This document shows, in pieces, positions 1-64,000 of a stretch of 64,000 bases of DNA. The position numbers and the translations under genes are program-made. The notes below the pieces were generated by a model, which was given only the letters and a program-made list of their open reading frames with translations, did not search any database and was not told the DNA's origin. This DNA is from an uncultured Gammaproteobacteria bacterium (GTDB taxonomy: Bacteria; Pseudomonadota; Gammaproteobacteria; JASBUN01): assembly GCA_963762165.1 (NCBI GenBank), contig CAVXJN010000003.1, positions 1,440,694 to 1,504,693 of the forward strand. Reading direction: 5' to 3'. Each line of letters begins with the position of its first letter. The first letter of the stretch is position 1.

Positions 1-1
1 C

Positions 2-466
2 CATGAATCGTTCGTCATTGCCGATCTGGAGATCCAGCCTTTCCCAGTACCCCACGACGCCCGGGAACCGGCGCAGTTCGTGTTCAGCGACGGCAGTCGC
101 CGCCTGGGGTTGTTGACCGACACCGGTGCCAGTACGCCCCACATCGAAGCCTGTCTGTCCGGGGTTGATGGCTTGTTGTTGGAGTGCAACCACGATGCCG
201 GCATGCTTGCCGCAGGCCGCTATTCACCGCAATTGAAGCGGCGCGTCGCTGGCCGTATGGGACATTTGAGCAACACCCAGGCCGCCGGGTTGCTGACGCG
301 CATCGATGCTTCGCGCTTACAGCATCTGGTGGCGGCCCATCTCAGCCAGGAAAACAACACGCCCGAACGGGCTGCCACCGCATTGGCTGAAGCACTTGGT
401 TGCAGTTCAAGTTGGGTCGCCATTGCCGACCAGGATGAAGGCCTGGATTGGCGCCATCTGAGCTGA
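2..466 (+). CDS. MBL-fold metallo-hydrolase, C-terminal part; the 5' end lies outside the window
   Basis: Frame 2 is open from position 2 (no stop before the internal Met at 80). The C-terminal NHDAGM...GHLSNTQAAGLL segment is typical of MBL-fold hydrolases. Family assignment from memory only. Confidence 0.5.
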   Translation, partial: HESFVIADLEIQPFPVPHDAREPAQFVFSDGSRRLGLLTDTGASTPHIEACLSGVDGLLLECNHDAGMLAAGRYSPQLKRRVAGRMGHLSNTQAAGLLTRIDASRLQHLVAAHLSQENNTPERAATALAEALGCSSSWVAIADQDEGLDWRHLS

Positions 467-647
467 TTCTGGCTCAATATTATAATTAACTGATACAGCG
501 ATACTTTTCTTCGCTTCCTCCACCGCGGAACTCTCAAGTTTTCCGTGATCCCGTCGCTTTGCCTGAGCAACGGCCGCGTTAGCGGCTTGCCCCGTTTGAT
601 CTTCCGCGTGCTTGCAGAAGGGTGCCGGGAAGCGAACGAAAATACGG

Positions 648-2681
648 ATGAAGCCAATGAAGAAACTGATTTCGAATCTCTCGATCCGACATAAGGTATG
701 GGGATCCCTCGGTCTGCTGGTTGCATTGATGGCGACGCTGGTAGGACTTTCCTACGTCAGTTTGTCGGGCGTCGACCGCAAAGTCGGAACAGTCGTGGAC
801 GAAATTCAGCCCACGGTAGTGCGCTCTATGCAACTCATGGCGCAACTGGAGCGTAGCGCCGGCGCATTGGGCTTTTATTTGCTCAGCCGCGACGACACCC
901 ATAAGCAGTCTTACCTGGCAGCGCTGAAATCGGCGCAGACGACTCTTGCGGCGCTCAAAGAGACAAGACTCATCGCGGAAAACGAAGCCAACCTCAAACT
1001 CCTCAACAGGATCGACCAGGACGTTGCCAAGTTCGCTTCTTATCACGAGCGTTTGTTCGAACTCACCGAGAACGACGCCAAGAACATTCCGGCGATTGCA
1101 TTGAGCGGCCAGATGTTGAATCCGCTCAGCCAACAGATGCTGCAGAATCTTTCCAGCATGCTGCAGTCCGAGGCCATGGAAGAAGCCAATGCTGAACGCA
1201 AAGGCATCCTCACCGACATCAACGACCTGCGCTACGCCTGGGCCAACGTTATGAACGGCGTGCGGGCGTACCTTGCATTTCGCGGCAAATCGTCGCTGGA
1301 TGAAGTCGATCTCTACAAGGGCGAAACGGACCGGTTATTGAAGAAGTTGCAGGACCGCGGCGATGCGCTGACCTTCGATCAAGCCGATTCGCTCGAACAG
1401 TTCGCGGGTCTGCGCGATAGCTTTTTTGCCAACTTCAAGAAAGTGTTTGAAATTCACAGCAGCGAACGCTGGCGCACCGATGCCTATCTGGTACGCAGCG
1501 AAATTGGACCGCTGTTGAGCGGAATAGAAGACAGATTGACGACTTTGGTGAAATCACTGGGCGATCGCGCCGCGACAACCGGCGGTGAACTCACCGATAC
1601 GATGAACTCGAGCCTGGTGACCCAGCTTGTGTTGCTGGTAATCGGGTTGCTCATCGGAACGCTGGTGCTGGTTGGTGCCGGGATGTTCATCGTCAAGCCG
1701 GCGCAACGGCTACGCGATCTGCTGCGCGACATTTCCGAGGGCGAGGGCGACCTCACTCAGCGCGCGGGCCTGGATTCGGAAGATGAGTTGGGACAGGCGT
1801 CCCGCTACTTCGACAACATGATGGACAGTATGCAAGCGATGATCCGTGACATCGCCGAAGTCTCCAATGCGGTACATGGCCGCTCCGGCGAGGCGAGTCG
1901 CGAAACCGAAGCCGTGACTTCGAACATCGCCCAGGGCGCCGACCGGGCCCGCAGCACTGCCGCCGCCACAGAACAGATGTCGACCACGGGTGCTGAAATC
2001 GCGCGCAGTGCCGCCGAGACCGCCGATGAGGCCGAGCGCGTGCAACAGGTTTCGGAAGACGGATCGCGGCGTGTTCAGCAGATGTCTGCGAAGGCCAAAG
2101 ACATGGGCGGGCAGGTGGATCATCTGCGCCGTGATGTCGAGGACTTGTCCGAAAAGAGCAAGGGCATGCTGGATATGGTGAGCATCATCAACGATATCGC
2201 CAATCAGACCAATCTTCTGGCCCTGAACGCCGCCATCGAAGCCGCCCGCGCCGGCGACTCCGGTCGCGGCTTCGCCGTAGTCGCAGAGGAAGTCCGGCAG
2301 TTGGCCATGAAGACCCAGGACTCGACGTCCCAGATCACGTCGTTGATTTCCGACAATCTGCAGTCCAACGAAAACCTTGCCTTGGTCATGGACAAAGTGT
2401 CTGAAGCGACCGGCAGTATGTTGGAGAGCGTCAACGAGACCGCCCAGGCGATCACCACCATGGGCGACGGTATCAAACTCATGAGCGGCAAGGCCGGTCA
2501 TATTGCCACTGCGGCCAAGGAACAATCCGTAGCCACTGACGAAGTGGCAGGCAATATCGAATCCATCTCGGCGATGGAAAGCGAAAATGCGACCCGCACC
2601 GGGCAGGTCGCCGCGCATCTGCAGGAGCTTTCCGAACTGTCTTCCCGCCTCGATACGCTGGTGGGTCGTTTCAAAGTCTGA
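648..2681 (+). CDS. methyl-accepting chemotaxis protein (2 TM, periplasmic ligand-binding region, HAMP, MCP signalling domain)
   Basis: 689-aa ORF with an N-terminal TM, a second TM near residue 330, then HAMP-like LRDLLRDISEGEGDLTQRA and the MCP signalling domain (NLLALNAAIEAARAGDSGRGFAVVAEEVRQLA). Start among the Met codons at 612, 648 and 657 is uncertain. Confidence 0.8.
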   Translation: MKPMKKLISNLSIRHKVWGSLGLLVALMATLVGLSYVSLSGVDRKVGTVVDEIQPTVVRSMQLMAQLERSAGALGFYLLSRDDTHKQSYLAALKSAQTTLAALKETRLIAENEANLKLLNRIDQDVAKFASYHERLFELTENDAKNIPAIALSGQMLNPLSQQMLQNLSSMLQSEAMEEANAERKGILTDINDLRYAWANVMNGVRAYLAFRGKSSLDEVDLYKGETDRLLKKLQDRGDALTFDQADSLEQFAGLRDSFFANFKKVFEIHSSERWRTDAYLVRSEIGPLLSGIEDRLTTLVKSLGDRAATTGGELTDTMNSSLVTQLVLLVIGLLIGTLVLVGAGMFIVKPAQRLRDLLRDISEGEGDLTQRAGLDSEDELGQASRYFDNMMDSMQAMIRDIAEVSNAVHGRSGEASRETEAVTSNIAQGADRARSTAAATEQMSTTGAEIARSAAETADEAERVQQVSEDGSRRVQQMSAKAKDMGGQVDHLRRDVEDLSEKSKGMLDMVSIINDIANQTNLLALNAAIEAARAGDSGRGFAVVAEEVRQLAMKTQDSTSQITSLISDNLQSNENLALVMDKVSEATGSMLESVNETAQAITTMGDGIKLMSGKAGHIATAAKEQSVATDEVAGNIESISAMESENATRTGQVAAHLQELSELSSRLDTLVGRFKV

Positions 2682-2689
2682 TCCGGGCA

Positions 2690-6866: not shown

Positions 6867-7842
<976 letters not shown>

Positions 7843-9973: not shown

Positions 9974-11642
<1,669 letters not shown>

Positions 11643-40824: not shown

Positions 40825-40826
40825 AA

Positions 40827-44283: not shown

Positions 44284-44322
44284 AGTCGCCGGCCAACCGT
44301 CCGTCGTCGCGGCGCCGCAAGC

Positions 44323-45321: not shown

Positions 45322-45415
45322 CAAATGTGGGAAACTGTAGGCAGGTCGCGCGGCGCGGGGCACAGGCCGAGCCGGTTCGACGCACCTATTCATCGAAACG
45401 AAGAGCGACTTCAGC

Positions 45416-45739: not shown

Positions 45740-45758
45740 TCAGGCCTGTGGCAGGGGG

Positions 45759-46643: not shown

Positions 46644-46654
46644 GGAACGCGGCC

Positions 46655-47829: not shown

Positions 47830-47880
47830 CGTATATCATGCGGCCACCGGCGCAAACCCGCTGCCGTCAGGACATTGCTC

Positions 47881-48834: not shown

Positions 48835-48880
48835 TCGCATCGCGCTGCGGGGCCGCGCCGTGCCTGGTCGTGAGTTGCGA

Positions 48881-49261: not shown

Positions 49262-49301
49262 GACATGGCCCGGTGAATGAGGTGGGTGGGAAGTGTGGAA
49301 T

Positions 49302-49946
49302 TCAGCGCTGTTCGGTGAAGAATAGCATCTGCGTGGCGCCAATTTGGATGGTATCTCCGTCCTGCAACTGCACGCTTTCTTCGCCGACCACCTGATCGCC
49401 CACCAGTGTCGGCCGCTCCCCGCCCAGATGCGAAATAAAAAAACCGTCGCCGCGGCTTGCGATCATGGCGCTCTGGCCTCCGGTCTTGCCTAGGCGTACG
49501 AGACTGCGGTCGAGGCGGATGGTGCGGCCTAGCTTCGGTCCGTTGAGGAACTGCAGCCAGGCTTCGTGGAAGGTCAGTTCGTCGTCCGTAGGCTCCGCGG
49601 CGCTGACCGCGTGATCCCGTGCTACGGAAACGGTGTGCTTTCCGAACAGCAACACGTCGCCGTGCCCGAGACGTTGCTCCCCCGACACCACCTTGCCATT
49701 GAGCAGCACGCCGGCGCTGCTGCTGACGCTGTGCAGGAGCAGTTCACCGTTCTCAGAGCGTATTCGCGCATGCACCGGATCCAGGCCCAGGTTGTCGATC
49801 CGCAAATCGCAATCCGGGTCGCGCCCGATCGACGCATTCTCTGCGGTGACGCTGAAGACCTTGAGTATGCGACCTTTGAATGAAAGCGTGAGCTTGTACA
49901 CTGCCAGAGGTGCTCCTTGACCTGGTTCTCCCGGCGCTCCGGGCAT
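49302..49946 (-). CDS. protein with two FHA (forkhead-associated) domains
   Basis: The first FHA is GRDPDCDLRIDN...HARI...NGTVV-like and the second is in the C-terminal half. It ends 40 nt upstream of the PilZ gene. Confidence 0.7.
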   Translation of the reverse strand: MPGAPGEPGQGAPLAVYKLTLSFKGRILKVFSVTAENASIGRDPDCDLRIDNLGLDPVHARIRSENGELLLHSVSSSAGVLLNGKVVSGEQRLGHGDVLLFGKHTVSVARDHAVSAAEPTDDELTFHEAWLQFLNGPKLGRTIRLDRSLVRLGKTGGQSAMIASRGDGFFISHLGGERPTLVGDQVVGEESVQLQDGDTIQIGATQMLFFTEQR

Positions 49947-50040
49947 TTGCGCAATATCCGCTTCCGCCGTCGGCGCTTGGCGCGCAAACGATCCTATTCA
50001 TTAGCGGCCGGTGGGCACCGAAATTTATACTTTGCCGTAT

Positions 50041-51333
50041 TCAGGGGGAGGCCTGGTTCGCATTCTGGCGCATCGGTCGCGGGCGGATACGGACGGTTTT
50101 CACCGCATTGTCCTTGGTTTGCACGATTTCCACCTCGTATCCGGACAGCAACATGCTGGTACCAGGCTCCGGAATCGCCTCCATATGTTCCAGAATCAGT
50201 CCGTTCAAGGTTTTCGGGCCGGCGGTCGGCAGATCCCACGTCAACAGGCGATTGAGTTCGCGCACGTAGCTGCCGCCGTCGATCAGATAGCTGCCGTCCT
50301 CCTGCGGGTGGATGTCCTTGCTGACCGCGGCCGGATCGGTCGTGAATTCGCCGACGATCTCTTCCAGGATATCTTCCAGCGTTACCAGTCCTTTGATTTC
50401 TCCGTATTCGTCGACCACCAGGCCGATCCGCCGGCCCTGGCGCTGGAAATTGATCAGTTGCTTGTTGAGCGGCGTGCCTTCCGGGATGAAATAGGGCTCC
50501 CGTAGAATTTCCAGCAGATCGTTGCGCCCGAATTCCTCCTGCGTCAGCAGATGCAGAACGTTGCGCAAATACAGAAAGCCAACGATGTCGTCGATGTCGT
50601 TGCGATACACCGGCAGCTTGGTGTACTGACTAGTGACCAGGAGTTCTTCGATGGCGTCCCAGTGGTCCTCGAGATCGATACCGACGACTTCGCTGCGAGG
50701 CACCATGATGTCTTCGACGGTCACTTTTTCCAAATCGAGAATACTGAGCAGCATGCGTTGGTGGCGCTGCGGAATCATGGCGCCGGCTTCGTTGACTACG
50801 GTACGCAATTCTTCCGAGCTGAGATTGAGGTTGCCGGTTTCTTCAGTGCTCAAGCGCAGCAGCCGCAAAAGCCGGTTGGCGATTGCGTTGACGACCCAAA
50901 CGACCGGATAAAGGATGCGCAGCAGCGGCTGGTAGATGTAGGCCGCAGGAAATGCGACCCGCTCCGGATGCAGGGCGGCGAGCGTCTTCGGTGCGACCTC
51001 GGCGAAAATCAGTATCAGCAAGGTCAGAACGCCCGTGGCGATGGCGAGCGCACCTTCGCCGCCCAGTCGCAAGGCGATGATGGTCGTCAGCGCCGAAGCC
51101 AGAATATTGACGAAATTGTTGCCCAGCAAAATGAGCCCAATGAGCCGATCCGGGCGTTCCAGCAGCTTCGCCGCGCGCATCGCGCCGCGATGGCCTGCTT
51201 TGGCGAGATGCCGTAAGCGGTACCGGTTGAGTGTCATCAGGCCGGTTTCGGAGCCGGAGAAAAACGCCGAAAGAACCAGCAACACCACCAGTGTACCGAT
51301 CAGCACACTCAATGGAATTTCTTGCAGAGCCAA
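50041..51333 (-). CDS. CNNM/CorC-HlyC family transporter (DUF21 + CBS pair + CorC_HlyC)
   Basis: 430-aa ORF with the DUF21 TM region, two CBS motifs and the C-terminal transporter-associated domain. Confidence 0.85.
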   Translation of the reverse strand: MALQEIPLSVLIGTLVVLLVLSAFFSGSETGLMTLNRYRLRHLAKAGHRGAMRAAKLLERPDRLIGLILLGNNFVNILASALTTIIALRLGGEGALAIATGVLTLLILIFAEVAPKTLAALHPERVAFPAAYIYQPLLRILYPVVWVVNAIANRLLRLLRLSTEETGNLNLSSEELRTVVNEAGAMIPQRHQRMLLSILDLEKVTVEDIMVPRSEVVGIDLEDHWDAIEELLVTSQYTKLPVYRNDIDDIVGFLYLRNVLHLLTQEEFGRNDLLEILREPYFIPEGTPLNKQLINFQRQGRRIGLVVDEYGEIKGLVTLEDILEEIVGEFTTDPAAVSKDIHPQEDGSYLIDGGSYVRELNRLLTWDLPTAGPKTLNGLILEHMEAIPEPGTSMLLSGYEVEIVQTKDNAVKTVRIRPRPMRQNANQASP

Positions 51334-51421
51334 GGTCGGGATGTGCCTGTGTTTAGGGCCTAGGTGCGGAAGGTTATTTGACCGGCTTCAGCTCGGCCGT
51401 GTCAAGCGTGGTCCGGGGGAG

Positions 51422-52228
51422 TCAACGTTTCAGCACCAGTTCCAAAACCATCTTGGTGCCGAAATAGGCGAGCATCAGTAACACAAAGCCGCCCAGAGTC
51501 CAGCGAATGGCAATGCGGCCGCGCCAGCCGAACCGCCAGCGTCCCCACAGGAGAATGGCGAACACGATCCAGGCGACGATCGACAGCACCGTTTTGTGCA
51601 CCAGATGCTGGGCGAAAATATCCTCCAGGAACAGCATGCCCGTGACCAGGCTCAAGGTCAGAAAAGCGAACCCCACCGCGATCATTTCGAACAGCAGCGC
51701 TTCCATGGTTTGCAGGGGCGGCAACGCGCGGATAAAACCGCCGGGTTGGCGATTGCGCAGATGCCGGTTCTGGATTGCGAGCAACACTGCTTGCACCATG
51801 GCAATGGTGAGGACGCTGTAGGCGACTACGGAAAGGAGGATGTGAACCTGTAGTTGCCATGTGCCGAGGACATGCAACACATGGCGTTCCGAAAACAACT
51901 CCTCCAGGGCAATGGTCGCGGCGGCGAGCGGCAGAAGCACGATACCCAGGTTTTCGACCGGTTTTCGCAGCGCCGCCAGCATCAACAGCGTCGCGACCAG
52001 CCACCCGATCAGCGAAGCGGCGTTGAAGAAACCGAGGTTGACGCCGTTGGGAATCAACAGCGTTCTGTGCAACAGAATCCCATGCAGGAGCACGGCAACC
52101 AGGCCCAATGCCAGGGCCACGATCCGGCCGCCCGGTGCCGTGTCGCCGCGCGCCAAGCGTACAGACAGAAGCCCGGCGCTGATCAGGTACAGCGCGATTG
52201 CAGGCACGCTTAGAACGGTCAGAGTCAT
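51422..52228 (-). CDS. ypjD: inner-membrane protein of the cytochrome-c-assembly-like family (YpjD homolog)
   Basis: 268 aa, about 8 TM, with the W-rich segment LWGRWRFGWRG. Its position divergent from ffh and next to the corC-like gene matches the E. coli ypjD-yfjD-ffh arrangement. Confidence 0.7.
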   Translation of the reverse strand: MTLTVLSVPAIALYLISAGLLSVRLARGDTAPGGRIVALALGLVAVLLHGILLHRTLLIPNGVNLGFFNAASLIGWLVATLLMLAALRKPVENLGIVLLPLAAATIALEELFSERHVLHVLGTWQLQVHILLSVVAYSVLTIAMVQAVLLAIQNRHLRNRQPGGFIRALPPLQTMEALLFEMIAVGFAFLTLSLVTGMLFLEDIFAQHLVHKTVLSIVAWIVFAILLWGRWRFGWRGRIAIRWTLGGFVLLMLAYFGTKMVLELVLKR

Positions 52229-52355
52229 ATGCGAAAGCGAATTTTGCCAGGCGGCATAATGGCATAACCATGGCCGGGATAGAAGCCGAGGCGCTCGGGC
52301 CCGGGCATCGCCTGCGATTGCGGTTTTGTGACTTGCGCTTCGTTTTCAGATCAAA

Positions 52356-53174
52356 ATGTTATGTCATGATCGGCAACAGGATGGGGCGGCAAAACTGGAT
52401 TTCACAGCCGTGAAAATACGTGTGCTGGGCTGCAGCGGCGGCATCGGCGAGGGACTCGATACCACTTGCCTGCTGGTCGATGATCGAATTTTGCTCGATG
52501 CCGGAACCGGTATCGGCAGTCTGCCGCTGTCTGCGTTGCAAAAGATCCGCCATGTATTCGTCACCCATTCGCACCTCGACCATATCGCCGGCATCCCGCT
52601 GTTGGTGGACACGATCTTCGATGCGCTCGACGAGCCACTGACCGTACACGCGCGGGCCGAAACCATCGATGCGCTTCGCACCCACGTGTTCAACGGAGTC
52701 ATCTGGCCGGATTTCACCGTTATTCCGAACGCCGACCGGGCGGTGCTGCGGTTCGAGGTCATGGCGCCCGGCGAATCGTTCCGGGTTGGCGATTGCAGCG
52801 TCGAATTGGTCCCGGTCAATCACGTGGTTCCGGGCGCTGGCTATCGGGTGGAATGTGCCGGGGGCGCGCTCGCATTCAGTGGCGACACCACCACCAACGA
52901 CACCTTCTGGACGGCACTCAACGCCCACGACGATTTGGATGTACTGATCGTCGAAGCGGCGTTTCCGGACCGTGATCTGGATCTGTGTCGCTTGGCGCAT
53001 CACTATTGCCCAAGTCTGCTGGCAACGGATCTGGAAAAGCTCCGGCACCGGCCTCAGGTCTACCTGACCCATCTCAAACCCGGCGACGAGGATGAAATCG
53101 TTGGCCAATGCCGCGACGGCATCCGCCATCTCGACGTACGGCAATTGTTCGGCGGCGAAATATTCGAATTTTAA
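52356..53174 (+). CDS. class II 3',5'-cyclic-nucleotide phosphodiesterase-like MBL-fold hydrolase
   Basis: The class-II PDE signature HxHLDHxxG is present as THSHLDHIAG. The start is uncertain (ATG 52356 or GTG 52410). Confidence 0.6.
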   Translation: MLCHDRQQDGAAKLDFTAVKIRVLGCSGGIGEGLDTTCLLVDDRILLDAGTGIGSLPLSALQKIRHVFVTHSHLDHIAGIPLLVDTIFDALDEPLTVHARAETIDALRTHVFNGVIWPDFTVIPNADRAVLRFEVMAPGESFRVGDCSVELVPVNHVVPGAGYRVECAGGALAFSGDTTTNDTFWTALNAHDDLDVLIVEAAFPDRDLDLCRLAHHYCPSLLATDLEKLRHRPQVYLTHLKPGDEDEIVGQCRDGIRHLDVRQLFGGEIFEF

Positions 53175-53272
53175 GGGTTTCCCATGGCCACGCGGTCGGA
53201 ACCCGCCCGTGACTAGGTAAGGTCCCCCGGCTTGCGTTAGAATCCCAGCCTCTTCAGGATTCGGGCCCGACC

Positions 53273-54631
53273 ATGTTTGACAGTCTTTCCGATCGACTTT
53301 CCAGCACCCTCAAAAAGCTGCGCGGCCAAGGGCGGCTTACTGAGGACAACATCAAGGAAACCCTGCGCGAAGTGCGCATGGCTTTGCTGGAGGCGGACGT
53401 CGCCCTGCCAGTGGTGAAAACGTTCATCGACCGGGTGCGCGAACGCGCGGTCGGGCGCGAGGTGCTCGACAGCCTGACTCCGGGGCAGGCGCTGGTGAAA
53501 GTGGTGCGCGACGAGTTGGTCGCGGTCATGGGCGATGCCAACGAGGAACTCAAGCTCAACGTACAGCCCCCGGCAGTTGTGCTCATGGCGGGCCTGCAGG
53601 GCGCGGGCAAGACCACCACGGTGGCGAAACTGGCGCGCTGGTTGAAGGAACGCAGGAAATCGGTGTTGGTGGTGAGTTGCGACGTCTACCGCCCTGCGGC
53701 AATCCAGCAACTTGCACGCCTGGCCGAGCAGGTCGGTGTCGAGGCGTTTCCCAGCGATCCGATTCAGGACCCGGTCACCATCGCCACCGCGGCGGTGGCC
53801 CAGGGGCGCAAGCAGTTCGTCGACGTGGTGCTGGTGGACACCGCCGGGCGCATGCACATCGACGCCGATATGATGGGCGAAATCCAGCGCCTGCATGAAG
53901 CGCTCAAGCCGGTGGAAACCCTGTTCGTGGTCGACAGCATGACCGGCCAGGATGCCGCCAATACGGCACAGGCGTTTAATGAAGCGTTGCCGCTGACAGG
54001 CGTGATTCTCACCAAAACCGATGGCGATGCCCGTGGCGGCGCCGCGCTGTCGATTCGCCAGATTACCGGCAAACCGATCAAATTCCTGGGCGCCGGTGAA
54101 AAAGTGGCGGCATTGGAGCCGTTCCATCCGGACCGGGTCGCGTCACGGATCCTGGGTATGGGCGACGTGCTGAGCCTGGTGGAAGAGGCTGAACGCAAGG
54201 TCGACCGCGACAAGGCCATGAAACTGGCCAAAAAACTCAACAAAGGCAAGGGTTTCGACCTGGAAGATTTCCGCGAACAGTTGCAACAGATGAACGCCAT
54301 GGGAGGCGTAGCCGGTCTGCTGGACAAATTGCCGGGTACCGCCAATCTCCCGGACAACGTCAAGAGCAAGGTCAACGACCGCGACATGGGTCGGCTGGTG
54401 GCAATCATCAATTCGATGACGCCAAAGGAGCGGCAATTCCCGGACATCATCAAGGGTTCCCGCAAGCGGCGTATCGCCGCCGGGTCCGGCACCCAGGTCC
54501 AGGACGTCAATCGTCTACTCAAGCAGTTCGCGCAAATGCAGAAAATGATGAAGAAAATGTCCAAGGGCGGGATGGCGAAGATGCTGCGGGCCATGAAGGG
54601 CCGGATGCCGCCGGGCATGCCGCCCATGTAG
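53273..54631 (+). CDS. ffh: signal recognition particle protein Ffh
   Basis: 452 aa with the N, G (GLQGAGKTT) and Met-rich M domains. Confidence 0.95.
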   Translation: MFDSLSDRLSSTLKKLRGQGRLTEDNIKETLREVRMALLEADVALPVVKTFIDRVRERAVGREVLDSLTPGQALVKVVRDELVAVMGDANEELKLNVQPPAVVLMAGLQGAGKTTTVAKLARWLKERRKSVLVVSCDVYRPAAIQQLARLAEQVGVEAFPSDPIQDPVTIATAAVAQGRKQFVDVVLVDTAGRMHIDADMMGEIQRLHEALKPVETLFVVDSMTGQDAANTAQAFNEALPLTGVILTKTDGDARGGAALSIRQITGKPIKFLGAGEKVAALEPFHPDRVASRILGMGDVLSLVEEAERKVDRDKAMKLAKKLNKGKGFDLEDFREQLQQMNAMGGVAGLLDKLPGTANLPDNVKSKVNDRDMGRLVAIINSMTPKERQFPDIIKGSRKRRIAAGSGTQVQDVNRLLKQFAQMQKMMKKMSKGGMAKMLRAMKGRMPPGMPPM

Positions 54632-54791
54632 CCGCATGGGGCGCCGCCGAGGAACCGCACCCGCTCGCCGGCGGGGAATTCGGCTGTTCGCTTAACCCCT
54701 TCACTTTTCCGCCGTTTCGCGTACAATCACCGGTTTTCCCGGCGCGGCCTGTCCGCGCCGCACGAACGAACACGCAGAGGATCACCAGGAT

Positions 54792-55037
54792 ATGGTCACC
54801 ATTCGACTGTCACGCGGCGGCGCCAACAAGCGCCCGTTCTACCACATCGTGGTCACCGACAGCCGCAACCGCCGCGACGGCCGATACATCGAACGTCTTG
54901 GCTTTTTCAATCCCGTTGCCAGCGGTAACGCGCAGACCTTGAACCTCAATGCCGAGCGGGTCGATTACTGGCTCGGGAAGGGCGCGCAGCCGTCCGAGCG
55001 CGTCGCCAAACTGATCAAGGAAAGCCGCAGCGCCTGA
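54792..55037 (+). CDS. rpsP: 30S ribosomal protein S16
   Basis: [17 protein letters not shown]... First gene of the rpsP-rimM-trmD-rplS operon. Confidence 0.95.
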
Positions 55038-55061
55038 TCCTCGGGTGCGACGGCATGCGGG

Positions 55062-55607
55062 TTGGCAGTGGCTGCGGAGCCCGGCACTGACACGGAAACC
55101 GAAGCCGCTGAGCCGTTGGTGATCGTCGGCCGGGTCTCCGGTTTGTTCGGCGTCAAGGGCTGGCTCAAGATCTTCGCCTACACCGACCCGCGGGAAAACA
55201 TTTTGCAGTACGACCCGTGGTATTTGCGGCTCGCGGATGGCTGGCGCCAGGTTTCGATCGCCGAAGGCCAGCGGCACGGTAAAACCGTGATTGCGCGACT
55301 GCAAGGTTGCACGGACCGTGACACGGCTGCGGCTTGGATCGGCCACGACATCGCGGTGCGCCGGGAACAGTTACCGATCCTGGGCGACGATGAATTTTAC
55401 TGGTCCGATCTGGAAGGGCTCGAGGTCGTGACCACCGCTGGAGTTGCGCTGGGCAAGGTTGCACATTTGCTGGAAACCGGCGCAAACGACGTGCTGGTGG
55501 TGCAAGGCGAGAGGGAACGGTTGATTCCCTATATTCGACCGGACGTGGTCGTCGAGATCGACCTGGCTGGTGGAGTGCTGCGGGTCGACTGGGATCCGGA
55601 GTTCTGA
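55062..55607 (+). CDS. rimM: ribosome maturation factor RimM
   Basis: RimM/PRC barrel layout ([18 protein letters not shown]). Confidence 0.9.
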
Positions 55608-55615
55608 TCCCGGCG

Positions 55616-56380
55616 ATGCGCATCGACGTCGTAACCTTGTTTCCGGAATTGGTGCGCGGCTTGACGGTGGGCGGCATCACCGGGCGGGCTGTGGAACGCG
55701 GAATTCTGGACCTGCAGTTCTGGAATCCGCGCGATTACACCCACGATCGACACCGCACCGTGGACGACCGCCCATACGGCGGCGGTCCGGGAATGGTAAT
55801 GAAAGTCGAACCCTTGCGGGCGGCGATCACGGCAGCGCGAGCCGCCCAGCAACAGGATTGCCCGGTGATCCATCTCAGCCCGCAGGGACGACGTCTGGAT
55901 CAAGCCGGGGCGCATGAACTGGCGACGCAGCCGGCCATGATCCTGGTTGCCGGACGCTACGAAGGCATCGATGAGCGGGTCGTGCAGACCGAGATCGATC
56001 AGGAATGGTCGATCGGCGACTATGTGTTGAGCGGCGGCGAGCTGGCGGCGATGGTTGTTGTCGATGCCGTGACCCGTTTGTTGCCGGGGGCGTTGGGCGA
56101 TGAGGATTCGGCACAGCAGGATTCGTTCGCCGATGGGTTGTTGGATTATCCCCATTACACCCGGCCGGAAGTGATCGACGGACTGCGGGTGCCGGAAGTA
56201 CTGCTCGGAGGTAATCACCAGGCCATCGAGCGCTGGCGGCGCAAGCAGGCTCTGGGCAGAACTTGGTTGCGGCGCCCGGACCTGTTGCAGGTTTTGGAGT
56301 TGGACCAACCGCAACGCGAGTTGTTGCAGGAATTCATTGAGGAGCACCGGCAAAGCGAAGACAATGCCGGCGACGTCTGA
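55616..56380 (+). CDS. trmD: tRNA (guanine37-N1)-methyltransferase
   Basis: [11 protein letters not shown]...[13 protein letters not shown] is the TrmD signature. Confidence 0.95.
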
Positions 56381-56436
56381 GGCGTCGGCTTCTCGTATCG
56401 TTAGAATTGATGGGCGTGATCCACAGGGGTAAGGCC

Positions 56437-56793
56437 ATGAGCAATATCATTCAGGAACTGGAACAGGAACAAATGACCCGCGAAGTACCGGCGTTCGGTG
56501 CCGGTGACACGGTGGTCGTCAATGTCAAAGTGACCGAGGGCAACCGTGAGCGCCTGCAGGCGTTCGAAGGCGTGGTCATCGCCAAGCGCAACCGTGGCCT
56601 CAACTCTTCGTTCACCGTGCGCAAGATCTCCCACGGCGAAGGCGTGGAACGCGTGTTCCAGACCCACAGCCCGCAGATCGATTCCATCGTGGTCAAGCGC
56701 CGCGGCGACGTGCGTCGTGCCAAGCTTTACTATTTGCGCGACCGTCAAGGCAAAGCGGCGCGCATCAAGGAAAAGCTCACCGCCAAGAACTGA
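56437..56793 (+). CDS. rplS: 50S ribosomal protein L19
   Basis: [13 protein letters not shown]... with the conserved body. The start is at ATG 56437 inside ORF 56407..56793. Confidence 0.95.
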
Positions 56794-56837
56794 GCCGCAC
56801 GCCAGCGGCTACAACTGCAGCCGCCGATGTGCTAACA

Positions 56838-56877
56838 ATGCGGGTGTCCCGTCCGGGACGCCCGCATTTTGTTTTTG
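56838..56877 (+). terminator. rho-independent terminator of the rpsP operon: 11-bp GC stem (GCGGGTGTCCC / GGGACGCCCGC, one G-U pair) followed by TTTTGTTTTTGT
   Basis: Read directly from the sequence, 45 nt after the rplS stop. Confidence 0.7.
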
Positions 56878-56891
56878 TGGACCGCACCGTC

Positions 56892-58673
56892 ATGCATATT
56901 GCGCTGGCGCGAAATTGCTGGTTTCTATTGCTGCTCGTCCGCTTAGCGTCGCCGGTGGCTGCGGCGGAAAAGGACGTTGACCAGCTGGCGCGCATACAAA
57001 TCCTCGCCGACGCAGGCGCCACAGAGCTGGCGCTGAAGCTGCTTGACGAGGATCAAGCCAAAGTCGTCGACCCCGGAAAATGGGCGCGCTGGGAACGGGC
57101 GCGAATGGAAATGCTGGCTGCGGCCGGGCGCTGGCAGGCGTTGTTGTCCCGCGCCGACGCGTTGCCGGTGCAACTGCCGGCAACGTTTCTGCAATGGGCG
57201 CGGACCCAAGAGGCGCGCGCGGCATTGCAACTGAATGACGGCGATCGCGCGGTGCGCCTGTTGCGGCGGTTGATCTGGCGCTATGGGCGCGACGCCGATG
57301 AGCTGGCCGAGTGGCGCCGACTGCTGGTGCGGGCTTATCTCAGCGCTGCACTGCCCCAGGACGCGACCAAGACGGTACGGCTCTACGAACAGGATTACGA
57401 GCCCACGGATCTGGAATGGCGGCGCCTGCGCGCCCGGGTTTTGCTCGCCAACGATCGTCCCCAACAGGCCCGCGCGCTGCTTGGCAACGACGCCGGCGGT
57501 GAAGCCCGGGCGTTATATCTGCTGGCGGCACTGCGCAGTGGGGCCATGACGCCGGCCGAAACCGCGCGCCAAGCCCAGGGGGCTGCGCAAGCCAAAAACG
57601 TGCCCGCCGCCATGCAGGCTGAATTATGGGCGGTGGCGGCCGCGGCCTGGAAAGCCAAAGGCGCCCACGAGCAGCACCTGGCGGCATTGGCCAACGCGGT
57701 CGCGGCGGGAGGCAGCAGCGGATTGGTGGTCGCCGACGGCCCCAGGTTGTGGCGTGCCTTTCGCGAGTACGGTCATGTGTTGGGCAACCAGCGTCAATTG
57801 CTTACCGGCGACGACCACGATTGGCTGCAGGCGGCGGAAAAGGTGGCTGCAGAGCATCCGCTGCAGGCCTGTGCGCTGTATTCCGTGCTCACCGAAACCG
57901 GCAGTGCGGCCGGCCGACGTGCTGCTCACGCCAAGCTTGCGGCGCTGCTGGAAGCCCAACCCCATGGCGTCGCCTTGCTGCGCGCCATGTACCTGCAGAA
58001 AAACGGGGTGGCGCGAATCGCGGACCTGCCGGCCCCGGTATGTCATCGTCTGGCCGACGTGGCTTTGGCCGACTCCGATTTCGCGCTCGCCTCGCGGCTC
58101 ATGGGAAATCTGAGCGAACCGCCGCGGGGCGTGGATCAATGGTTCTGGCAACTGCGGCGGGCGCGCATTCTGATCATGGGCGGAGACTACGAAGCGGGCG
58201 CCGATGCCCTGGAGCAGCTGCTTGCTGCCAAGGAGCCTTTATCCCGCGAGCGCTTGGACCGGCTGATGCAAGTACTGTTCGATCTGCAGCGGGTGGGCGC
58301 CCACAAGCGTGCATTAGCGTTGTTCGCCCAATTGCCGCTGGCGGGGCAAGACGTCAAACTGCGGCGCGAAGTGCTGTATTGGCGTGCCGATTCACACAAG
58401 GCACTCGGCCAGTATGCGCGCGCCGCGCAGTTGTATCTGGAATCGGCGTGGCTGCCAGGCGTGAAGACTGCCGATCAATGGTCGCAGACGGCGCAATATC
58501 AGGCCGCGGACGCGTTGCGCCAAGCCGGCATGACCGACGATGCCCGGCGCATCTACCAGCGCTTGTTGGCGATCACCGCCGACCCCGGTCGGCGCGCAGT
58601 GCTGCGCAGCCGTTTGCAGCAGTTGTCGCTGTCGGAAGGGAAATTGCAACCCGATGCCGAATCGTCCCATTGA
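56892..58673 (+). CDS. secreted helical-repeat (TPR-like) protein, hypothetical
   Basis: Ala/Leu-rich repeats after the signal peptide MHIALARNCWFLLLLVRLASPVAAA. The start was moved to ATG 56892 because the rplS terminator lies inside the first 20 codons of ORF 56829..58673. Confidence 0.5.
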   Translation: MHIALARNCWFLLLLVRLASPVAAAEKDVDQLARIQILADAGATELALKLLDEDQAKVVDPGKWARWERARMEMLAAAGRWQALLSRADALPVQLPATFLQWARTQEARAALQLNDGDRAVRLLRRLIWRYGRDADELAEWRRLLVRAYLSAALPQDATKTVRLYEQDYEPTDLEWRRLRARVLLANDRPQQARALLGNDAGGEARALYLLAALRSGAMTPAETARQAQGAAQAKNVPAAMQAELWAVAAAAWKAKGAHEQHLAALANAVAAGGSSGLVVADGPRLWRAFREYGHVLGNQRQLLTGDDHDWLQAAEKVAAEHPLQACALYSVLTETGSAAGRRAAHAKLAALLEAQPHGVALLRAMYLQKNGVARIADLPAPVCHRLADVALADSDFALASRLMGNLSEPPRGVDQWFWQLRRARILIMGGDYEAGADALEQLLAAKEPLSRERLDRLMQVLFDLQRVGAHKRALALFAQLPLAGQDVKLRREVLYWRADSHKALGQYARAAQLYLESAWLPGVKTADQWSQTAQYQAADALRQAGMTDDARRIYQRLLAITADPGRRAVLRSRLQQLSLSEGKLQPDAESSH

Positions 58674-59157
58674 GACCACCGCGATCGCAGTGATTCCGGC
58701 GCCGTTCGGCCGGGTAGGCATCTGGGTTGGCGACGGCTGCCTGGAGCGCCTAGAACTGCTGTCCGGCGATGGCCCGCTGCGGGCGCCGGTATCTGGGCTG
58801 TCGGTACAGGTGGCGCAGCAGCTGGCGCACTATTTCCGCAGTCCACGCTTTCGATTCTCCGTGCCGTTGCAACCACTCGGTACCCCGTTTCAGCAGCGGG
58901 TGTGGGCGTCGCTGGGCGACATCCCGGTCGGTGAAGTGCGTACGTACGGCGAATTGGCCACCGCCCTCGGCACCGGCGCCCGGGCCGTGGGTGGGGCCTG
59001 CCGCGCCAATCCGGTCCCCATCATCGTGCCCTGCCACCGGGTCGTGGCGGCGGTGGGAATCGGCGGCTTCGCCGGACACACGATGGGCGCGCAACTGGCG
59101 TGGAAGCATTGGTTATTGGCCCACGAAGGACGAGGCTTCCCCGCCACCGGCCCTTGA
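58654..59157 (+). CDS. ogt: methylated-DNA--protein-cysteine S-methyltransferase
   Basis: The active site PCHRVV is present with the surrounding helix-turn-helix region. The start is at the Met of MPNRPIETT. Confidence 0.8.
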
Positions 59158-59230
59158 AAGTCGGCTACGGCGCCCCCATAAGCACAGCTTTGAACGTGGT
59201 GGACCGGTTACTCAAGGAGAAGCGCGGATC

Positions 59231-61127
59231 ATGACTGTCGACACCCATAAAGAAACCCTCGAATTTCAGACCGAAGTGCAGCAGCTGCTGCACCTGATGA
59301 TTCATTCGCTGTATTCGAACAAGGAGATCTTTCTGCGTGAACTGATCTCCAATGCCTCGGATGCCTGCGACAAGCTGCGCTTCGAAGCGCTGACCGACGA
59401 CGCCCTGTACGAAGGCGACAGCGATCTGAAGATCCGCGTGTCGTTCGACAAGGAAGCACGCACCGTGACGGTCGCCGACAACGGTATCGGCATGAGCCGC
59501 CAGGAAGTGATGGACAACCTCGGCACCATCGCCAAGTCCGGCACCCAGCAGTTCTTCCAGTCGCTCACCGGCGATCAGGCCAAGGACACCAAGCTCATCG
59601 GCCAGTTCGGCGTCGGTTTCTATTCCGCTTTCATCGTCGCCGACAAGGTCACGGTGACCACGCGCCGCGCCGGGCTGGGCGCCGAACACGGCGTGCGGTG
59701 GGAGTCCGACGGCAAGGGCGCGTATACCCTGGAGAACGTCGAACAGGACCGAGCACGGCACCGAAGTGACGCTGCACCTGCAAGCAGGACGAGGACGAAT
59801 TTCTCGAACCCTACCGGCTGCGCGCACATCATCAAGAGTACTCCGACCACATCAATCTGCCGATCCGATGCATGGCGCAGGCGAGGATGACGATGACGCG
59901 AGGACGAAACCGTCAACCAGGCATCGGCGCTGTGGGCGCGGCCCAAGTCCGAAATCAGCGACGAGGAATACAAGGAGTTCTACAAGCACGTCGCCCACGA
60001 CTTCGAGGACCCGCTGGCCTGGACCCATAACCACGTCGAGGGCACCCAGAGCTACACCGGTCTGCTGTATATCCCCAAGCGGGCGCCGTTCGATCTGTGG
60101 GACCGCGACAAGCGGCATGGCATCAAGCTGTACGTGCGCCGCGTATTCATCATGGACGACGCCGAGCAATTGATGCCGCAATTATCTGCGTTTCGTGCGC
60201 GGTCTGGTGGATTCCGACGACCTGCCGCTCAATGTGTCCCGCGAAATTCTGCAGCACAACCGTCAGATCGACACCATCCGCGGCGCATCCGTGAAGAAGA
60301 GTGCTGGCGCTGCTGGAAGAATTGGCGGAAAAGGATGCCGGAGAAGTACGCGCGAATTCTGGGACCAATTCGGCCAAGTGCTGAAGGAAGGCCCGGCGGA
60401 AGACTTCGGCAACCGCGAGCGGATCGCCAAGTTGCTGCGTTTTGCCTCGACCCACAGCGACACCGCGGCGCAGGAGGTTTCGCTGCAGGACTACATCGGG
60501 CGCATGCAGGAAGGACAGGAGAAGATCTACTACGTCACCGCCGACACCTTCGCCGCGGCCAAGAGCAGCCCGCATCTGGAGATATTCCGCAAGAAGGGCA
60601 TCGAAGTGCTGTTGCTGCACGATCGCATCGACGAGTGGATGATTTCCCATCTGAGCGAATTCGATGGCAAGAAGCTGCAATCGGTCGCCAAGGGCAGCCT
60701 CGATCTCGGTGCCCTGGAAGATAAGGAGGAAAAAGAGCAGCTCGAGCGCGAGGCCGACGCCCACAAGGATTTCATCGATCGTATGCGCAAAGCCTTGGGC
60801 GACAGGATCAAGGACGTACGCGTCAGCCACCGACTGACCGATTCGCCTTCGTGCCTGGTGGTCGAGGAAGACGACATGGCGCTCAGTCTGCAGAAGGTAC
60901 TGAAACAGGCGGGACACGACGTTCCGGCAGTCCAGCCAATCCTGGAAATCAACCCGCAGCATCCGCTGGTGGTGCGTTTGGAGCAGGCCGGAGACGAAGA
61001 ACGATTCGCCGACTGGAGCAGCCTGTTATTGGAACAGGCGACGCTGGCTGAAGGCGGGCAGTTGGAAGATCCGGCGGCGTTCGTGGCGCGATTGAACCAG
61101 CTGCTGCTGACGCTGGCCAAGGAATGA
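59231..61127 (+). pseudogene. htpG: molecular chaperone HtpG (Hsp90); at least 2 frameshifts around 59750-60200, probably sequencing error
   Basis: The N-terminal ATPase domain ([45 protein letters not shown]) is in ORF 58769..59890, and the middle and C-terminal domains are in ORF 60195..61127. The joining region reads correctly only by frame-hopping ([14 protein letters not shown] in the third frame). Confidence 0.9.
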
Positions 61128-61173: not shown

Positions 61174-61680
61174 ATGTCACGACCAGAGCCAAAGCGGCGA
61201 CTTCGCGATGCTGTCGGTCGGTTCGCCAGTGTGCTGGGCCCGGACGCCTTGCTGCGGGGCGAACTCGCCGGCAGTGGCGATTACATCGTACTCGGCCGGG
61301 TGGAAGGCGACTCGGCGCTGGAGGGAACCGTGGTGCTGGAGCGCAGCGGCGTCTGGCGGGGCCGCTTGCAGGCCCGTTCCCTGGTGATATCGGGAACCTT
61401 GGAAGGTGAGGCGGTGGCTGCGGAGCGGGTCGAACTCACCGCCAGTGCGCGGGTGCGCGGCGATATCCTCGCGCCGTCCATCGCCATCGCCGAAGGGGCT
61501 GTATTCGAGGGCAAGATCCAAAGCGGCACCGAGTTCCGAGGTGACACGTTTCCAGGACCGCCGTCAGGAGCGTTGAATCGTGAGCGACAACGAAGAATCG
61601 TTGCGCATCGACAAATGGCTTTGGGCGGCACGATTCTTCAAGACCCGCTCTCTGGCGGCCGAAGCGGTGGCTGGCGGTAA
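61174..61680 (+). CDS. bactofilin-family polymer-forming cytoskeletal protein
   Basis: The beta-helical repeat core is GELAGSGDYIVLGRVEGD...VERVELTASARVRGDI...AEGAVFEGKI. The C-terminal about 33 codons overlap hslR in another frame, so the 3' end is suspect. Confidence 0.6.
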   Translation: MSRPEPKRRLRDAVGRFASVLGPDALLRGELAGSGDYIVLGRVEGDSALEGTVVLERSGVWRGRLQARSLVISGTLEGEAVAAERVELTASARVRGDILAPSIAIAEGAVFEGKIQSGTEFRGDTFPGPPSGALNRERQRRIVAHRQMALGGTILQDPLSGGRSGGWR

Positions 61681-62025: not shown

Positions 62026-62436
62026 ATGTCTCGACCCACCACGCCGCTGTTAACGGTCGATGTGATCATCGAAATGGTCGACCGTCCCGACGAACCCATC
62101 GTGCTCATCGAGCGGCGCAACGAGCCCCACGGCTGGGCGTTGCCCGGCGGCTTCGTGGACGTCGGTGAAACGGTCGAGCAGGCCGCAGTCCGGGAAATGG
62201 CCGAGGAAACCGGATTGAAGGTCAAGCTGGTACGCTTGCTGGGCGTGTATTCGGACCCCACCCGCGATCCGCGCGGGCATACGGTCAGCGTGGTGTTCGT
62301 CGGCGAGGCCCGGGGTACGCCCAAAGCAGCGGACGACGCGCGCAACGTGGCCTGTTTCGCCGCCGACGCCGTTCCGGCCCTCGCTTTCGACCACGCGCAC
62401 AATATTGCGGGACTATCTACGCAGTTGCGACGATAG
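62026..62436 (+). CDS. NUDIX hydrolase
   Basis: The Nudix box is [23 protein letters not shown]. Confidence 0.8.
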
Positions 62437-62567
62437 CAGCAACCGCGCCTTCAATCCCCGCTGAACCATCCGCGCGCGTTACGGAAGGCGCGCCGCAGAT
62501 TTGATATCCTAGTAAACTGCTTCGTTTTTAACCCATTTATTCTTTAGGTGTATTGACTGGAGTTTCC

Positions 62568-63619
62568 ATGCGCCCAGCACAGTTGTCGTTAATCTTGGAG
62601 CGCGAGTTCGAAAGCACACGCGATGGCCACCACACGCCCGTCATGATGTGGGGGCCGCCCGGGGTGGGCAAGTCCCAGATCGTGATGCAGGTCGCCGCCA
62701 AGCACAACGTGGCGGTGATCGACATCCGCTTGTCGCAAATGGAGCCGTCGGATCTGCGCGGCATTCCGTTCCGCGTCGGCGAGCACGTGGAGTGGGCCGT
62801 GCCCGCAATGCTGCCGGATGCACAGCGCCATGGCGCTGCAGGGCATCCTGTTCCTGGACGAAATCACGTCTGCGCCGCCGAGCGTTTCGGCTGCCGCGTA
62901 CCAGCTGATTCTGGACCGCAAACTCGGGCGCCTATGAAGTGCCGCTGGGCTGGGCGATTTTTGCCGCGGGCAATCGCCAGGGCGATCGTGGCGTGACCTA
63001 CAGCATGCCGGCGCCGTTGGCCAACCGTTTTTCCCATTTCGAAATGAGCGTCAATCTGGACGACTGGGTCGCCTGGGCGTACCAGCACGGCATCGACGAA
63101 CGGGTGATCGGCTTTCTGCGCTTTCGCCCCGAATTGCTGTTCGATTTCGATCCGGCCCACAATCCGGTGGCGTTCCCGTCGCCGCGTTCCTGGGAGTTTG
63201 CCCATCGCGCGCTGCAGAAGTTCGGCCATAACCGCGAAATGTTGATCGGACGCGCTGCAGGCCTGCGTCGGTCCGGCGGCCGGCATCGAGTTGGCGTGCA
63301 TTCGTCGAAAATCTGGATAAGCTGCCGGACATCGACGCCATCGTGAACGGCGAAACGGTGAAGGTGCCGAAGGAAGTCGATCTTGCAATACGCGGTGGCC
63401 TCGGCGCTGGTGGGCCGTGCCATCAAAGCCAAGGACACGCCCGACGCGCAGCAGGTCTGGGGCCGGATTCTCGATTTCGCCGGCAGCTTTTCGCAGCGGG
63501 AAATGGGCGTGATGCTGGTCTCGGACATGCACCGTGCCATCGGCCAGGATCTGTTCGCCGTGCCGCAGTTTTCCAATTGGGCGCAAGCCGTCGCCGACGT
63601 GATGCTGTTCAGCAATTGA
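62568..63619 (+). pseudogene. MoxR-like AAA+ ATPase (AAA_5 type); at least 2 frameshifts
   Basis: Walker A WGPPGVGKSQ in ORF 62553..62996. Walker B and sensor (ILFLDEITSAPP; WAIFAAGNRQGDRG...LANRF) are in the 62864-63340 frame. The C-terminal part ends with LFSN at 63619 in a third frame. Confidence 0.65.
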
Positions 63620-63654
63620 TCAACTACGCGATGCGTGTCCGGGAGCCGCGTTGA

Positions 63655-64000
63655 ATGAGTGCACAAGACGTCGAAACCAAACTGAGCGCCGCGCGCACGC
63701 GGCTGATACTCGACAAGCCGTTTCTGGGCGCGCTGGTGCTGCGTCTGCCGATGGTGGCGGGCGATCCGAACTGGTGCCGTACCACCGGCACCGATGCCCG
63801 CACGCTTCTATTACAACCAGGATTACATCGCCGACCTGAGTCTGGCGCAGACGCAGTTCATGCTCGCCCACGAAGCCTTGCATTGCGCCTTGTCCCACTT
63901 TGCGCGCCGCCAGCACCGGGTCAAACACCGCTGGGATCTGGCCTGCGATTTCGCCATCAATCCGATCCTCGATCAAAGAGGGGCTGACACCGCCGCCCGA
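63655..64000 (+). pseudogene. DUF2201 (putative metallopeptidase N-domain) / VWA partner of the MoxR-like ATPase; frameshifted near 63790; the 3' end lies outside the window
   Basis: LILDKPFLGALVLRLP then, in another frame, YYNQDYIADLS...FMLAHEALHCALSHFARR...WDLACDFAINPIL. This is the conserved HExxH-like DUF2201_N pattern. Confidence 0.55.

Follow-up and report, generated by a model that had tools for sequence, protein, structure and literature searches.

Clustered frameshifts in a gammaproteobacterial metagenome contig: very probably consensus errors, with collapsed strain variation as the likely source

Has a bacterium recently lost the reading frames of genes such as dxs, ribE and htpG, or were the interruptions written into its sequence during assembly? 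This question is raised by a stretch of 64,000 nucleotides (64 kb; the window in the following) from a contig of an uncultured gammaproteobacterium, in which many conserved proteins continue in another frame. Indel positions were called by nucleotide alignment of the window with intact orthologues from two syntenic relatives, contig_37936 and contig_10289 (ENA sample ERZ25039483, a source of Microflora Danica MAGs), which share 88–90% nucleotide identity with the window. A codon-usage Viterbi frame map mis-assigned some strands (e.g. at 43.6–45.3 kb) and was replaced by these alignments. The error status of single sites and the presence of a strain mixture were assessed from the assembled sequence alone.

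Interrupted genes and their intact orthologues

Against the two relatives, the window displays 45 frame-changing indels over 14 genes, comprising 39 insertions and 6 deletions (a ratio of 6.5:1). Single-base insertions account for 37 of the 39; the other two are +2 events in htpG. The affected genes are listed below with their insertions (+) and deletions (-), together with an indel-free stretch that serves as internal control for clustering.

6867..7842, plus strand: msrP (Oxidored_molyb); +1 at 6932 (TA[T]C, TAT/TAC), by which the N-terminal 22 codons are severed
9974..11642, minus strand: ettA (ABC-F ATPase, 555 aa in relatives); +1 at 11473
16240..16902, plus strand: ribE (riboflavin synthase, Lum_binding, 220 aa); +1 at 16247, -1 at 16738
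20939..21573, plus strand: retropepsin-like aspartyl protease gene (gag-asp_proteas); -1 at 21028
21598..22444, minus strand: folE2 (GCHY-1, 281 aa); +1 at 21677, -1 at 21814, +1 at 22104
22593..24475, minus strand: dxs (626 aa in relatives); +1 at 23155 and 24069
36606..37853, plus strand: DUF1015 gene (413 aa in relative); six +1, at 37092, 37163, 37381, 37530, 37750 and 37831
37858..39946, minus strand: PAS-GGDEF-EAL gene (694 aa); +1 at 38707, 38790, 38821 and 37862
42647..43659, minus strand: epmB (radical SAM lysine 2,3-aminomutase-like, 336 aa); +1 at 42732, 42741, 42868 and 43587, -1 at 43194 and 43209
43700..59700, no strand: indel-free control stretch; 19 assessed genes, none with a disruptive frameshift
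59231..61127, plus strand: htpG (627 aa); +1 at 59752, 59780, 59824, 60179, 60296, 60338 and 60352, -1 at 59839, +2 at 59875 and 59896
61174..61576, plus strand: bactofilin gene; +1 at 61528
62026..62464, plus strand: NUDIX hydrolase gene; +1 at 62396
62568..63619, plus strand: MoxR-like AAA ATPase gene (348 aa); five +1, at 62837, 62925, 63250, 63293 and 63381
63655..64000, plus strand: DUF2201 gene (VWA-like ATPase partner, truncated by the window end); +1 at 63806 and 63970

The insertion at 11473 breaks ettA into two ORFs (88 and 462 aa), and the public gene call for MsrP is a 285-aa fragment, compared to 324 aa in the relatives. In the PAS-GGDEF-EAL gene, the trio at 38707, 38790 and 38821 allows the frame to be regained after about 38 garbled codons; the insertion at 37862 hits the final sense codon, puts the stop out of frame and lengthens the ORF by about 85 codons. 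The gene htpG carries ten frame-changing sites between 59752 and 60352, and HtpG has been deposited as split pieces of 219 and 310 aa. Its +2 events can be read as pairs of adjacent doubled sites, and an additional in-frame +3 at 59866 replaces GTC by CGATGC, resembling two interleaved codons.

Other apparent events were left uncounted. Those at 36374–36517 (HAMP-cyclase) and 45337–45409 (PilZ) lie upstream of the true start codon. At 8405/8414 and at 58838/58841 the frame is regained only a few bases on, and the former pair of indels is also present between the two relatives. An indel at 45763 agrees with the shorter C-terminus of one of them (relative B).

In both relatives (about 89% identity) all of these genes are intact, and full-length at every affected site; a comparison of the two with each other (92% identity) gives no internal frameshifting indel over 29,290 nt of coding sequence. 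Frame switches at the same window positions are obtained from ORFs of up to 55 more distant genomes, drawn from a set of loci in which isolates in culture and MAGs from other projects are represented; the switch in ribE, for instance, is also visible with the ORFs of 55 other loci. The underlying search, by tblastn with stop-to-stop ORFs from 80 loci, is noisy, since antisense ORFs in GC-rich sequence mimic junctions where genes meet; it serves here as support for five sites only. No hits came from scans for Rfam families and tRNAs.

After frame correction, the 14 broken genes contain 0 internal stops and share 86–98% amino-acid identity with the relative. The pooled dN/dS is 0.061 for these genes with indels removed, versus 0.088 for 44 intact genes; purifying selection on the frame-corrected broken genes is as strong as on their intact neighbours. 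The lesions in the broken genes are 1–2-base indels only, with 0 nonsense codons and no larger deletions, just as the original prediction had claimed.

As the protein carries on seamlessly in another frame every time, one may think of programmed recoding, by which ribosomal frameshifting or transcriptional slippage regains the frames in vivo. Programmed +1/-1 frameshifting, as in prfB and dnaX, likewise continues the protein in another frame, and relies on one conserved slippery site per gene that is common to orthologues. The window instead holds up to 10 shifts per gene. No slippery or homopolymeric sequence lies at the frame shifts, and no shift is conserved in either relative, where the ORFs are uninterrupted. 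Judged by these intact orthologues, programmed recoding is effectively refuted, and we give it next to no credence.

Distribution and sequence context of the indels

The indels amount to about one per 1.4 kb of the window (about 70 per 100 kb). All 12 genes originally listed are indeed interrupted, and the breaks had been placed correctly to within about 30 nt, but the rate of roughly one per 2.5 kb was an undercount: the insertions in the bactofilin (61528) and NUDIX (62396) genes had gone unlisted, and the DUF1015 gene, correctly described as interrupted, has six sites (37092 to 37831) where three had been counted. The frameshifts had also been called pervasive, which holds as to their reality but not as to an even spread. 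They are clustered at 6.9–24.1 kb, 37.0–38.9 kb, 42.7–43.6 kb and 59.7–64 kb, and between clusters there are 13 kb and 16 kb free of events. Counts in 2-kb bins display a variance/mean of 3.9, which was reached by 0 of 20,000 random placements, and the longest event-free gap (16.2 kb, with another of about 13 kb) has p = 4e-4. Genes of the indel-free control stretch include efp, epmA, psd, ffh, rpsP, rimM, trmD and rplS.

The inserted base is unlike both of its neighbours in 29 of the 37 single-base insertions (null 0.54, p = 0.002). Only one of the 37 lies in a homopolymer triplet, and longer runs contain none. Likewise, 29 of 37 fall at a third codon position where the inserted base and the one next to it complete different but synonymous codons, with synonymous third positions being only a proxy for sites polymorphic between co-assembled strains. 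The expectation for such synonymous doubling is 0.43 to 0.44 under random and re-aligned nulls (p about 2e-5), and 17.1 and 18.8 of 37 under context-matched nulls (p = 2.5e-5 and 1.6e-4). Eight of the 37 insertions lie outside this pattern. Third codon positions are also hit by 5 of the 6 deletions; taken alone, the deletion signal is not significant (p = 0.06).

In a post-hoc association, the motif CTGCA occurs near 7 of the 37 sites, and GCGC and CGCG each span the inserted base 6 times. This link may point to a component that depends on sequence, from basecaller, polisher or methylation, which allele doubling does not predict. As a cause of the indels, methylation or motif context was considered and not adopted. 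The enrichments of CTGCA and GCGC were noticed after the fact and are marginal once multiple testing is allowed for; the codon-position signal survives context matching.

These data bear on the possibility that the indels are real and that a recently degenerating or mutator lineage has just inactivated many genes, including dxs, ribE, folE2 and epmB. The indels do stand in the deposited sequence, and no independent assembly contradicts them in the sequence collections searched, where no second assembly of the same species was found; two JGI metagenome scans yielded no contigs of the same species or genus. Yet the broken genes lack nonsense substitutions, larger deletions or a raised dN/dS (0.061), and up to ten events would have accumulated in 600 bp of htpG with the adjoining 16 kb untouched. 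Furthermore, the core biosynthetic genes dxs, ribE and folE2 would be lost together. The synonymous third-position bias is expected from neither real mutation nor selection, and the same applies to the insertion bias and the non-slippage contexts. Genomes in reductive evolution, as in recently host-restricted bacteria, accumulate nonsense mutations, deletions and insertion sequences in addition to frameshifts, under relaxed selection, and tend to keep the core biosynthesis that they need. The window shares with them a large number of interrupted genes per unit length, but their mixed lesions and relaxed selection are absent from it. A degenerating lineage thus appears very unlikely. We judge just as improbable that the indels are real and fixed in a free-living gammaproteobacterium, be it with dozens of recent +1 events in core genes or with tolerance by correction at the level of RNA or translation.

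In our judgement the frameshifts are, with near certainty, consensus errors of a metagenome-assembled contig and not mutations of the organism. The original preference for consensus indel errors over pseudogenisation is borne out by the dN/dS values (0.061 vs 0.088), the intact relatives and the third-position bias.

Collapsed strain variation as a source of consensus errors

The preference of the insertions for synonymous third positions suggests that both alleles of strain polymorphisms were retained in the consensus. In the mechanism we propose, reads of two closely related, co-occurring strains would have been merged into one contig. These strains would differ by single bases, mostly at synonymous third codon positions, and a consensus or polishing step would have written both alleles side by side, resulting in a 1-base insertion, or less often neither allele, resulting in a 1-base deletion. 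Neighbouring strain differences would yield interleaved alleles. Clusters may then represent segments with both haplotypes comparably abundant, and clean segments those with one haplotype dominant. A possible reason for the excess of insertions may be a deletion-prone read-error model, which could make the longer consensus cheaper for disagreeing reads. At no fewer than five doubled sites, both alleles are unlike relative A. Recruitment of reads across species was considered as a source of the second allele; at 87.4–90.8% identity the clusters do not stand out by their similarity to the relatives, and no support for it was found.

Mixed-haplotype consensus errors in collapsed heterozygous or strain-mixed regions are a concept of diploid and strain-resolved assembly. 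The window is alike in its side-by-side bases that each give a valid synonymous codon, in its interleaved codons (CGATGC for GTC) and in the confinement of events to segments; the weak association with CTGCA and GCGC lies outside that concept. Both this likeness and allele doubling in collapsed strains as the specific mechanism, which we consider reasonably probable, are drawn from the assembly rather than from reads. No account of metagenome consensus errors that arise by allele doubling was found in the literature searched.

The source is assumed to be a long-read contig, with platform and pipeline like those of its relatives. Related MAGs were assembled by metaFlye with one Medaka round from Nanopore reads only, and microdiversity differs from sample to sample (PMC12313526). 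More frameshift-truncated proteins have been described for ONT soil assemblies (PMC13087279). Frameshifts and truncated gene calls caused by indels in long-read (Nanopore) assemblies and MAGs, as gauged by IDEEL-type tests (PMC9262707, PMC13087279), resemble those of the window in that single-base consensus indels split conserved genes into adjacent ORFs, and in that the fragments sit in the deposited annotation. Benchmark assemblies contain roughly 4 indels per 100 kb (PMC13087279), and the window lies far above this value. In addition, classic Nanopore errors are deletion-prone and homopolymeric, whereas the errors seen here are mostly insertions, located outside homopolymers, clustered and biased to synonymous third positions.

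This difference also bears on a simpler account, with plain random errors in the consensus of a long-read assembly that was left unpolished or had low coverage. Strains would play no role in it, and random read indels would persist at positions with too few reads. Clustering could mirror local drops in coverage, and the 8 of 37 insertions that do not fit allele doubling would find a place here; frameshifts caused by indels are documented in low-coverage MAGs from Nanopore reads only (PMC9262707, PMC12313526). Noise, however, has no reason to favour synonymous third positions (29 of 37, versus 17–19 expected with flanks matched), and the residual errors classically left by Nanopore reads are homopolymer indels, not bases that differ from both neighbours and avoid runs of 4 or more. 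Moreover, the two relatives, which stem from a Nanopore pipeline, are clean across the same genes. We regard plain errors as an unlikely account.

The avoidance of homopolymers, the 6.5:1 excess of insertions, the regional clusters and the likely polymorphic nature of the sites argue for collapsed strain variation over simple read noise. The original attribution to an assembly artefact stands, and its specification as an unpolished or low-coverage assembly is amended on these grounds. As a whole, a consensus artefact via collapsed strains is the best explanation of the data, and in our opinion a likely one.

Consequences for annotation

The broken genes concern the quality of annotation and not biology: in the organism itself, a gammaproteobacterium of soil or sediment with relatives among the Microflora Danica MAGs, they are almost certainly whole. 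Analyses of completeness, pathways and pseudogenes in this MAG would be misled. The signature described here (insertion-biased, non-homopolymer, clustered and at synonymous sites) differs from the homopolymer type expected of long reads. It is recognisable without reads, and hence may be of use in the quality control of long-read MAGs with collapsed strains.

That annotation based on ORFs would fragment the genes had been anticipated, and is seen in the public record. Nine fragment ORFs are found verbatim as gene products on a single public contig of 1,895,089 bp in NCBI/ENA, and nowhere else in the collections searched. Truncated and garbled products are now present in public protein collections as singleton clusters.

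Deposited record and reference genomes

The window (G+C 61%) is a piece of a gammaproteobacterial chromosome. It carries the housekeeping genes purL, msrPQ, ettA, glyA and nrdR, a ribD-ribE-ribBA-ribH-nusB-thiL-pgpA run, folE2, dxs, ispA, xseB, parE, parC, epmB, efp, epmA, psd, ffh, rpsP-rimM-trmD-rplS and htpG, as well as a MoxR-like ATPase gene with its DUF2201 partner. Ffh translated from the window is a verbatim public protein entry from one NCBI/ENA contig of 1,895,089 bp. The 285-aa truncated MsrP is likewise a verbatim public protein of this contig alone, and eight more ORF fragments of broken genes are verbatim public entries from it as well. The window therefore represents part of a long-contig assembly as it was deposited, without alteration, and its frameshifts were already there in the deposit. 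The collections searched contain no second assembly of this species, the fragment proteins of the broken genes were found on one contig only, and two JGI metagenome scans gave no matches.

A RibBA scan of species-representative genomes returned one close relative, Microflora Danica MAG MFD01721.bin.1.74 (contig_37936), all other matches having protein identities of 72% or less. Four overlapping 21-kb pieces of this contig, gathered via homologue searches and exact-protein look-ups, constitute relative A, which covers the whole window minus 28.06-30.77 kb. Relative B, which spans 1-17.9 kb and 43.3-64 kb, consists of two pieces of contig_10289 from the same ENA sample. The two relatives align collinearly with the window, their nucleotide identity being 88-90% to it and 92% to each other; the homologue lists contain nothing nearer to the window. 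In the 2.7 kb outside relative A, ORFs match the full-length Pfam models EncFtn-like, DUF3501 and CNP1, and a full-length ParE extends from there into the covered part.

Frameshifts in the window

Global alignment of each called gene of relative A with its window counterpart yielded 45 frame-changing indels (events) in 14 genes, within about 56 kb of assessed coding sequence.

Events per broken gene
MsrP: 1
EttA: 1
RibE: 2
Retropepsin-like protease: 1
FolE2: 3
Dxs: 2
DUF1015: 6
PAS-GGDEF-EAL: 4, including one that hits the last sense codon and puts the stop codon in another frame
EpmB: 6
HtpG: 10
Bactofilin: 1
NUDIX: 1
MoxR-like ATPase: 5
DUF2201: 2

Relative B concurs with relative A at each site within its coverage, and five sites are frame switches also against ORFs of 12 to 55 more distant genomes, a comparison including cultured isolates and MAGs of other projects. 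Relatives A and B, although 8% apart, show no internal frameshifting indel over 29,290 nt of common coding sequence. Every gene listed in the original prediction is interrupted at about the place given there; two more broken genes have to be added, and several hold two to three times more events than had been counted.

Two -/+ pairs a few bases apart were left uncounted as compensated, as was one C-terminal difference in psd, which is the same as in relative B. In the HAMP-cyclase and PilZ genes, the apparent frameshifts at the 5' ends precede the actual start codons and were not counted either. For both genes the public calls in relative A seem to begin too far upstream: conservation starts at MEFSDLKNT... 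for HAMP-guanylate-cyclase (L081, a piece of relative A, 15977-16150; window 36374-36517) and at MTDNDTNDT... for PilZ (L082, another piece, 2015-2107; window 45325-45415), and the called parts upstream are indel-rich, like intergenic DNA.

The frameshifts had been described as pervasive, but they are strongly clustered. Nine events fall within 37.09-38.82 kb, six within 42.73-43.59 kb and ten within 59.75-60.35 kb, with nine further up to 64 kb, and none within 24.1-37.0 kb or 43.6-59.7 kb. The variance/mean ratio of counts in 2-kb bins is 3.9, matched by 0 of 20,000 random placements, and the 16.2-kb event-free gap has p = 4e-4.

Pseudogenisation would be the biological explanation. Several of the genes it would have inactivated serve core biosynthesis: dxs that of isoprenoid precursors, ribE that of riboflavin and folE2 that of folate precursors. 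After removal of the indels with relative A as guide, the 14 genes contain no internal stop codons, nor do they show larger deletions, as had been noted; they share 86-98% amino-acid identity with relative A. Their pooled dN/dS (0.061) is not above that of 44 intact genes (0.088). This picture differs from what genome decay would leave and supports consensus errors; the frameshifts are not a biological feature.

Codon positions and proposed cause

Insertions (39) outnumber deletions (6). Among the 37 single-base insertions, just one belongs to a three-base run and longer runs contain none; the events are not homopolymer errors. The inserted base is unlike both neighbours in 29 cases (null 0.54, p = 0.002). 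In 29 of the 37, the inserted base shares a single third-codon-position slot with its neighbour, and the two give different synonymous codons (e.g. TAT/TAC, CGA/CGG, CTG/CTC, GCG/GCC, GAT/GAC).

Null expectations for synonymous pairs at single-base insertions
Random insertions, same genes: fraction 0.43, p = 1.2e-5
Random insertions after re-alignment with the same aligner: fraction 0.44, p = 1.9e-5
One flanking base matched, either strand: 17.1/37, p = 2.5e-5
Two flanking bases matched, either strand: 18.8/37, p = 1.6e-4

In five insertions, neither base equals that of the relative at a four-fold degenerate site. Deletions are reported at third positions in 5 of 6 cases, which alone is not significant (p = 0.06).

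Placement at synonymous sites is unexpected of mutation, selection or random read noise but expected of natural polymorphism among close strains. The simplest reading is a collapse of reads from two strains into one contig, the consensus step retaining both alleles as an insertion. Assembly error had been proposed as the cause; two-strain allele retention would be its more specific, probable form. We conjecture that the excess of insertions may come from a read-error model prone to deletions, in which two read groups that disagree would be explained more cheaply by a longer consensus.

In the htpG linker region (59866-59900), the window has CGATGC where both relatives have GTC, which reads as CAG and GTC interleaved. 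It further has GCGCAGGC for GCCGGC and GACGC for GCC, and each of the three reads as two alleles alternating base by base. The two +2 events in htpG look like doubling at two neighbouring positions.

Relatives A (L082/L083) and B (L084/L085) co-occur in one sample, ERZ25039483, and both assemble cleanly. At 92% identity, they indicate that the lineage comprises several coexisting related populations, the kind of setting where strain collapse could happen. Over 53 nt at the 5' end of the MoxR-like ATPase gene (62577-62629), the window and both relatives are identical, the genomes otherwise differing by 8-11%; by rough estimate, one or two such runs per 64 kb are expected by chance.

A sequence-specific basecaller, polisher or methylation component may also contribute. 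In a post-hoc k-mer look, CTGCA lies within 6 nt of 7/37 insertion sites against a background of 2-3%. The CTGCA(G) sites concerned are the insertions 42732, 42741, 59780 and 62837 and the deletion 21814, with 23155, 37092 and 37750 nearby; at four insertions and one deletion it is the error that generates the motif. The inserted base falls within GCGC in six cases and within CGCG in six (1.5 expected for each). These enrichments are borderline after multiple testing and may be chance after many comparisons. The codon-position signal persists in flank-matched nulls despite the motif association, and a motif effect, too, would be technical in origin.

Technical context and annotation

The related Microflora Danica MAGs are Nanopore-only, assembled with metaFlye and one round of Medaka; the authors of this pipeline checked Nanopore-associated errors and report microdiversity variable between samples (PMC12313526). 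Residual Nanopore errors are usually described as homopolymer indels fragmenting gene calls (PMC9262707). Frameshift-truncated proteins are more frequent in ONT soil assemblies than in HiFi assemblies, and mock-community assemblies contain about 4 indels per 100 kb (PMC13087279); the window has about 70 per 100 kb. Its source contig may come from another pipeline than the related MAGs. Allele doubling at strain SNPs was not found described as an error class in the literature searched.

The relevance of the frameshifts lies in annotation and quality control of this and similar MAGs. At 37604-37862, the +1 in the GGDEF-EAL gene's last sense codon lengthens the ORF by about 85 codons. These run antisense over the 3' end of DUF1015, the convergent gene, and the public 377-aa gene call takes in this extension.

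Among intact loci, a small cluster at 25899-28692 combines rubrerythrin and DUF3501 with a CCG/Fer4 protein and an EncFtn-like (encapsulated-ferritin-like) protein; the stretch examined showed no encapsulin shell gene. A FimW-family gene (PF27104/PF27125) at 40818-42578 is also intact and has only 13 matches at E <= 1e-50 among 5.8 billion proteins.
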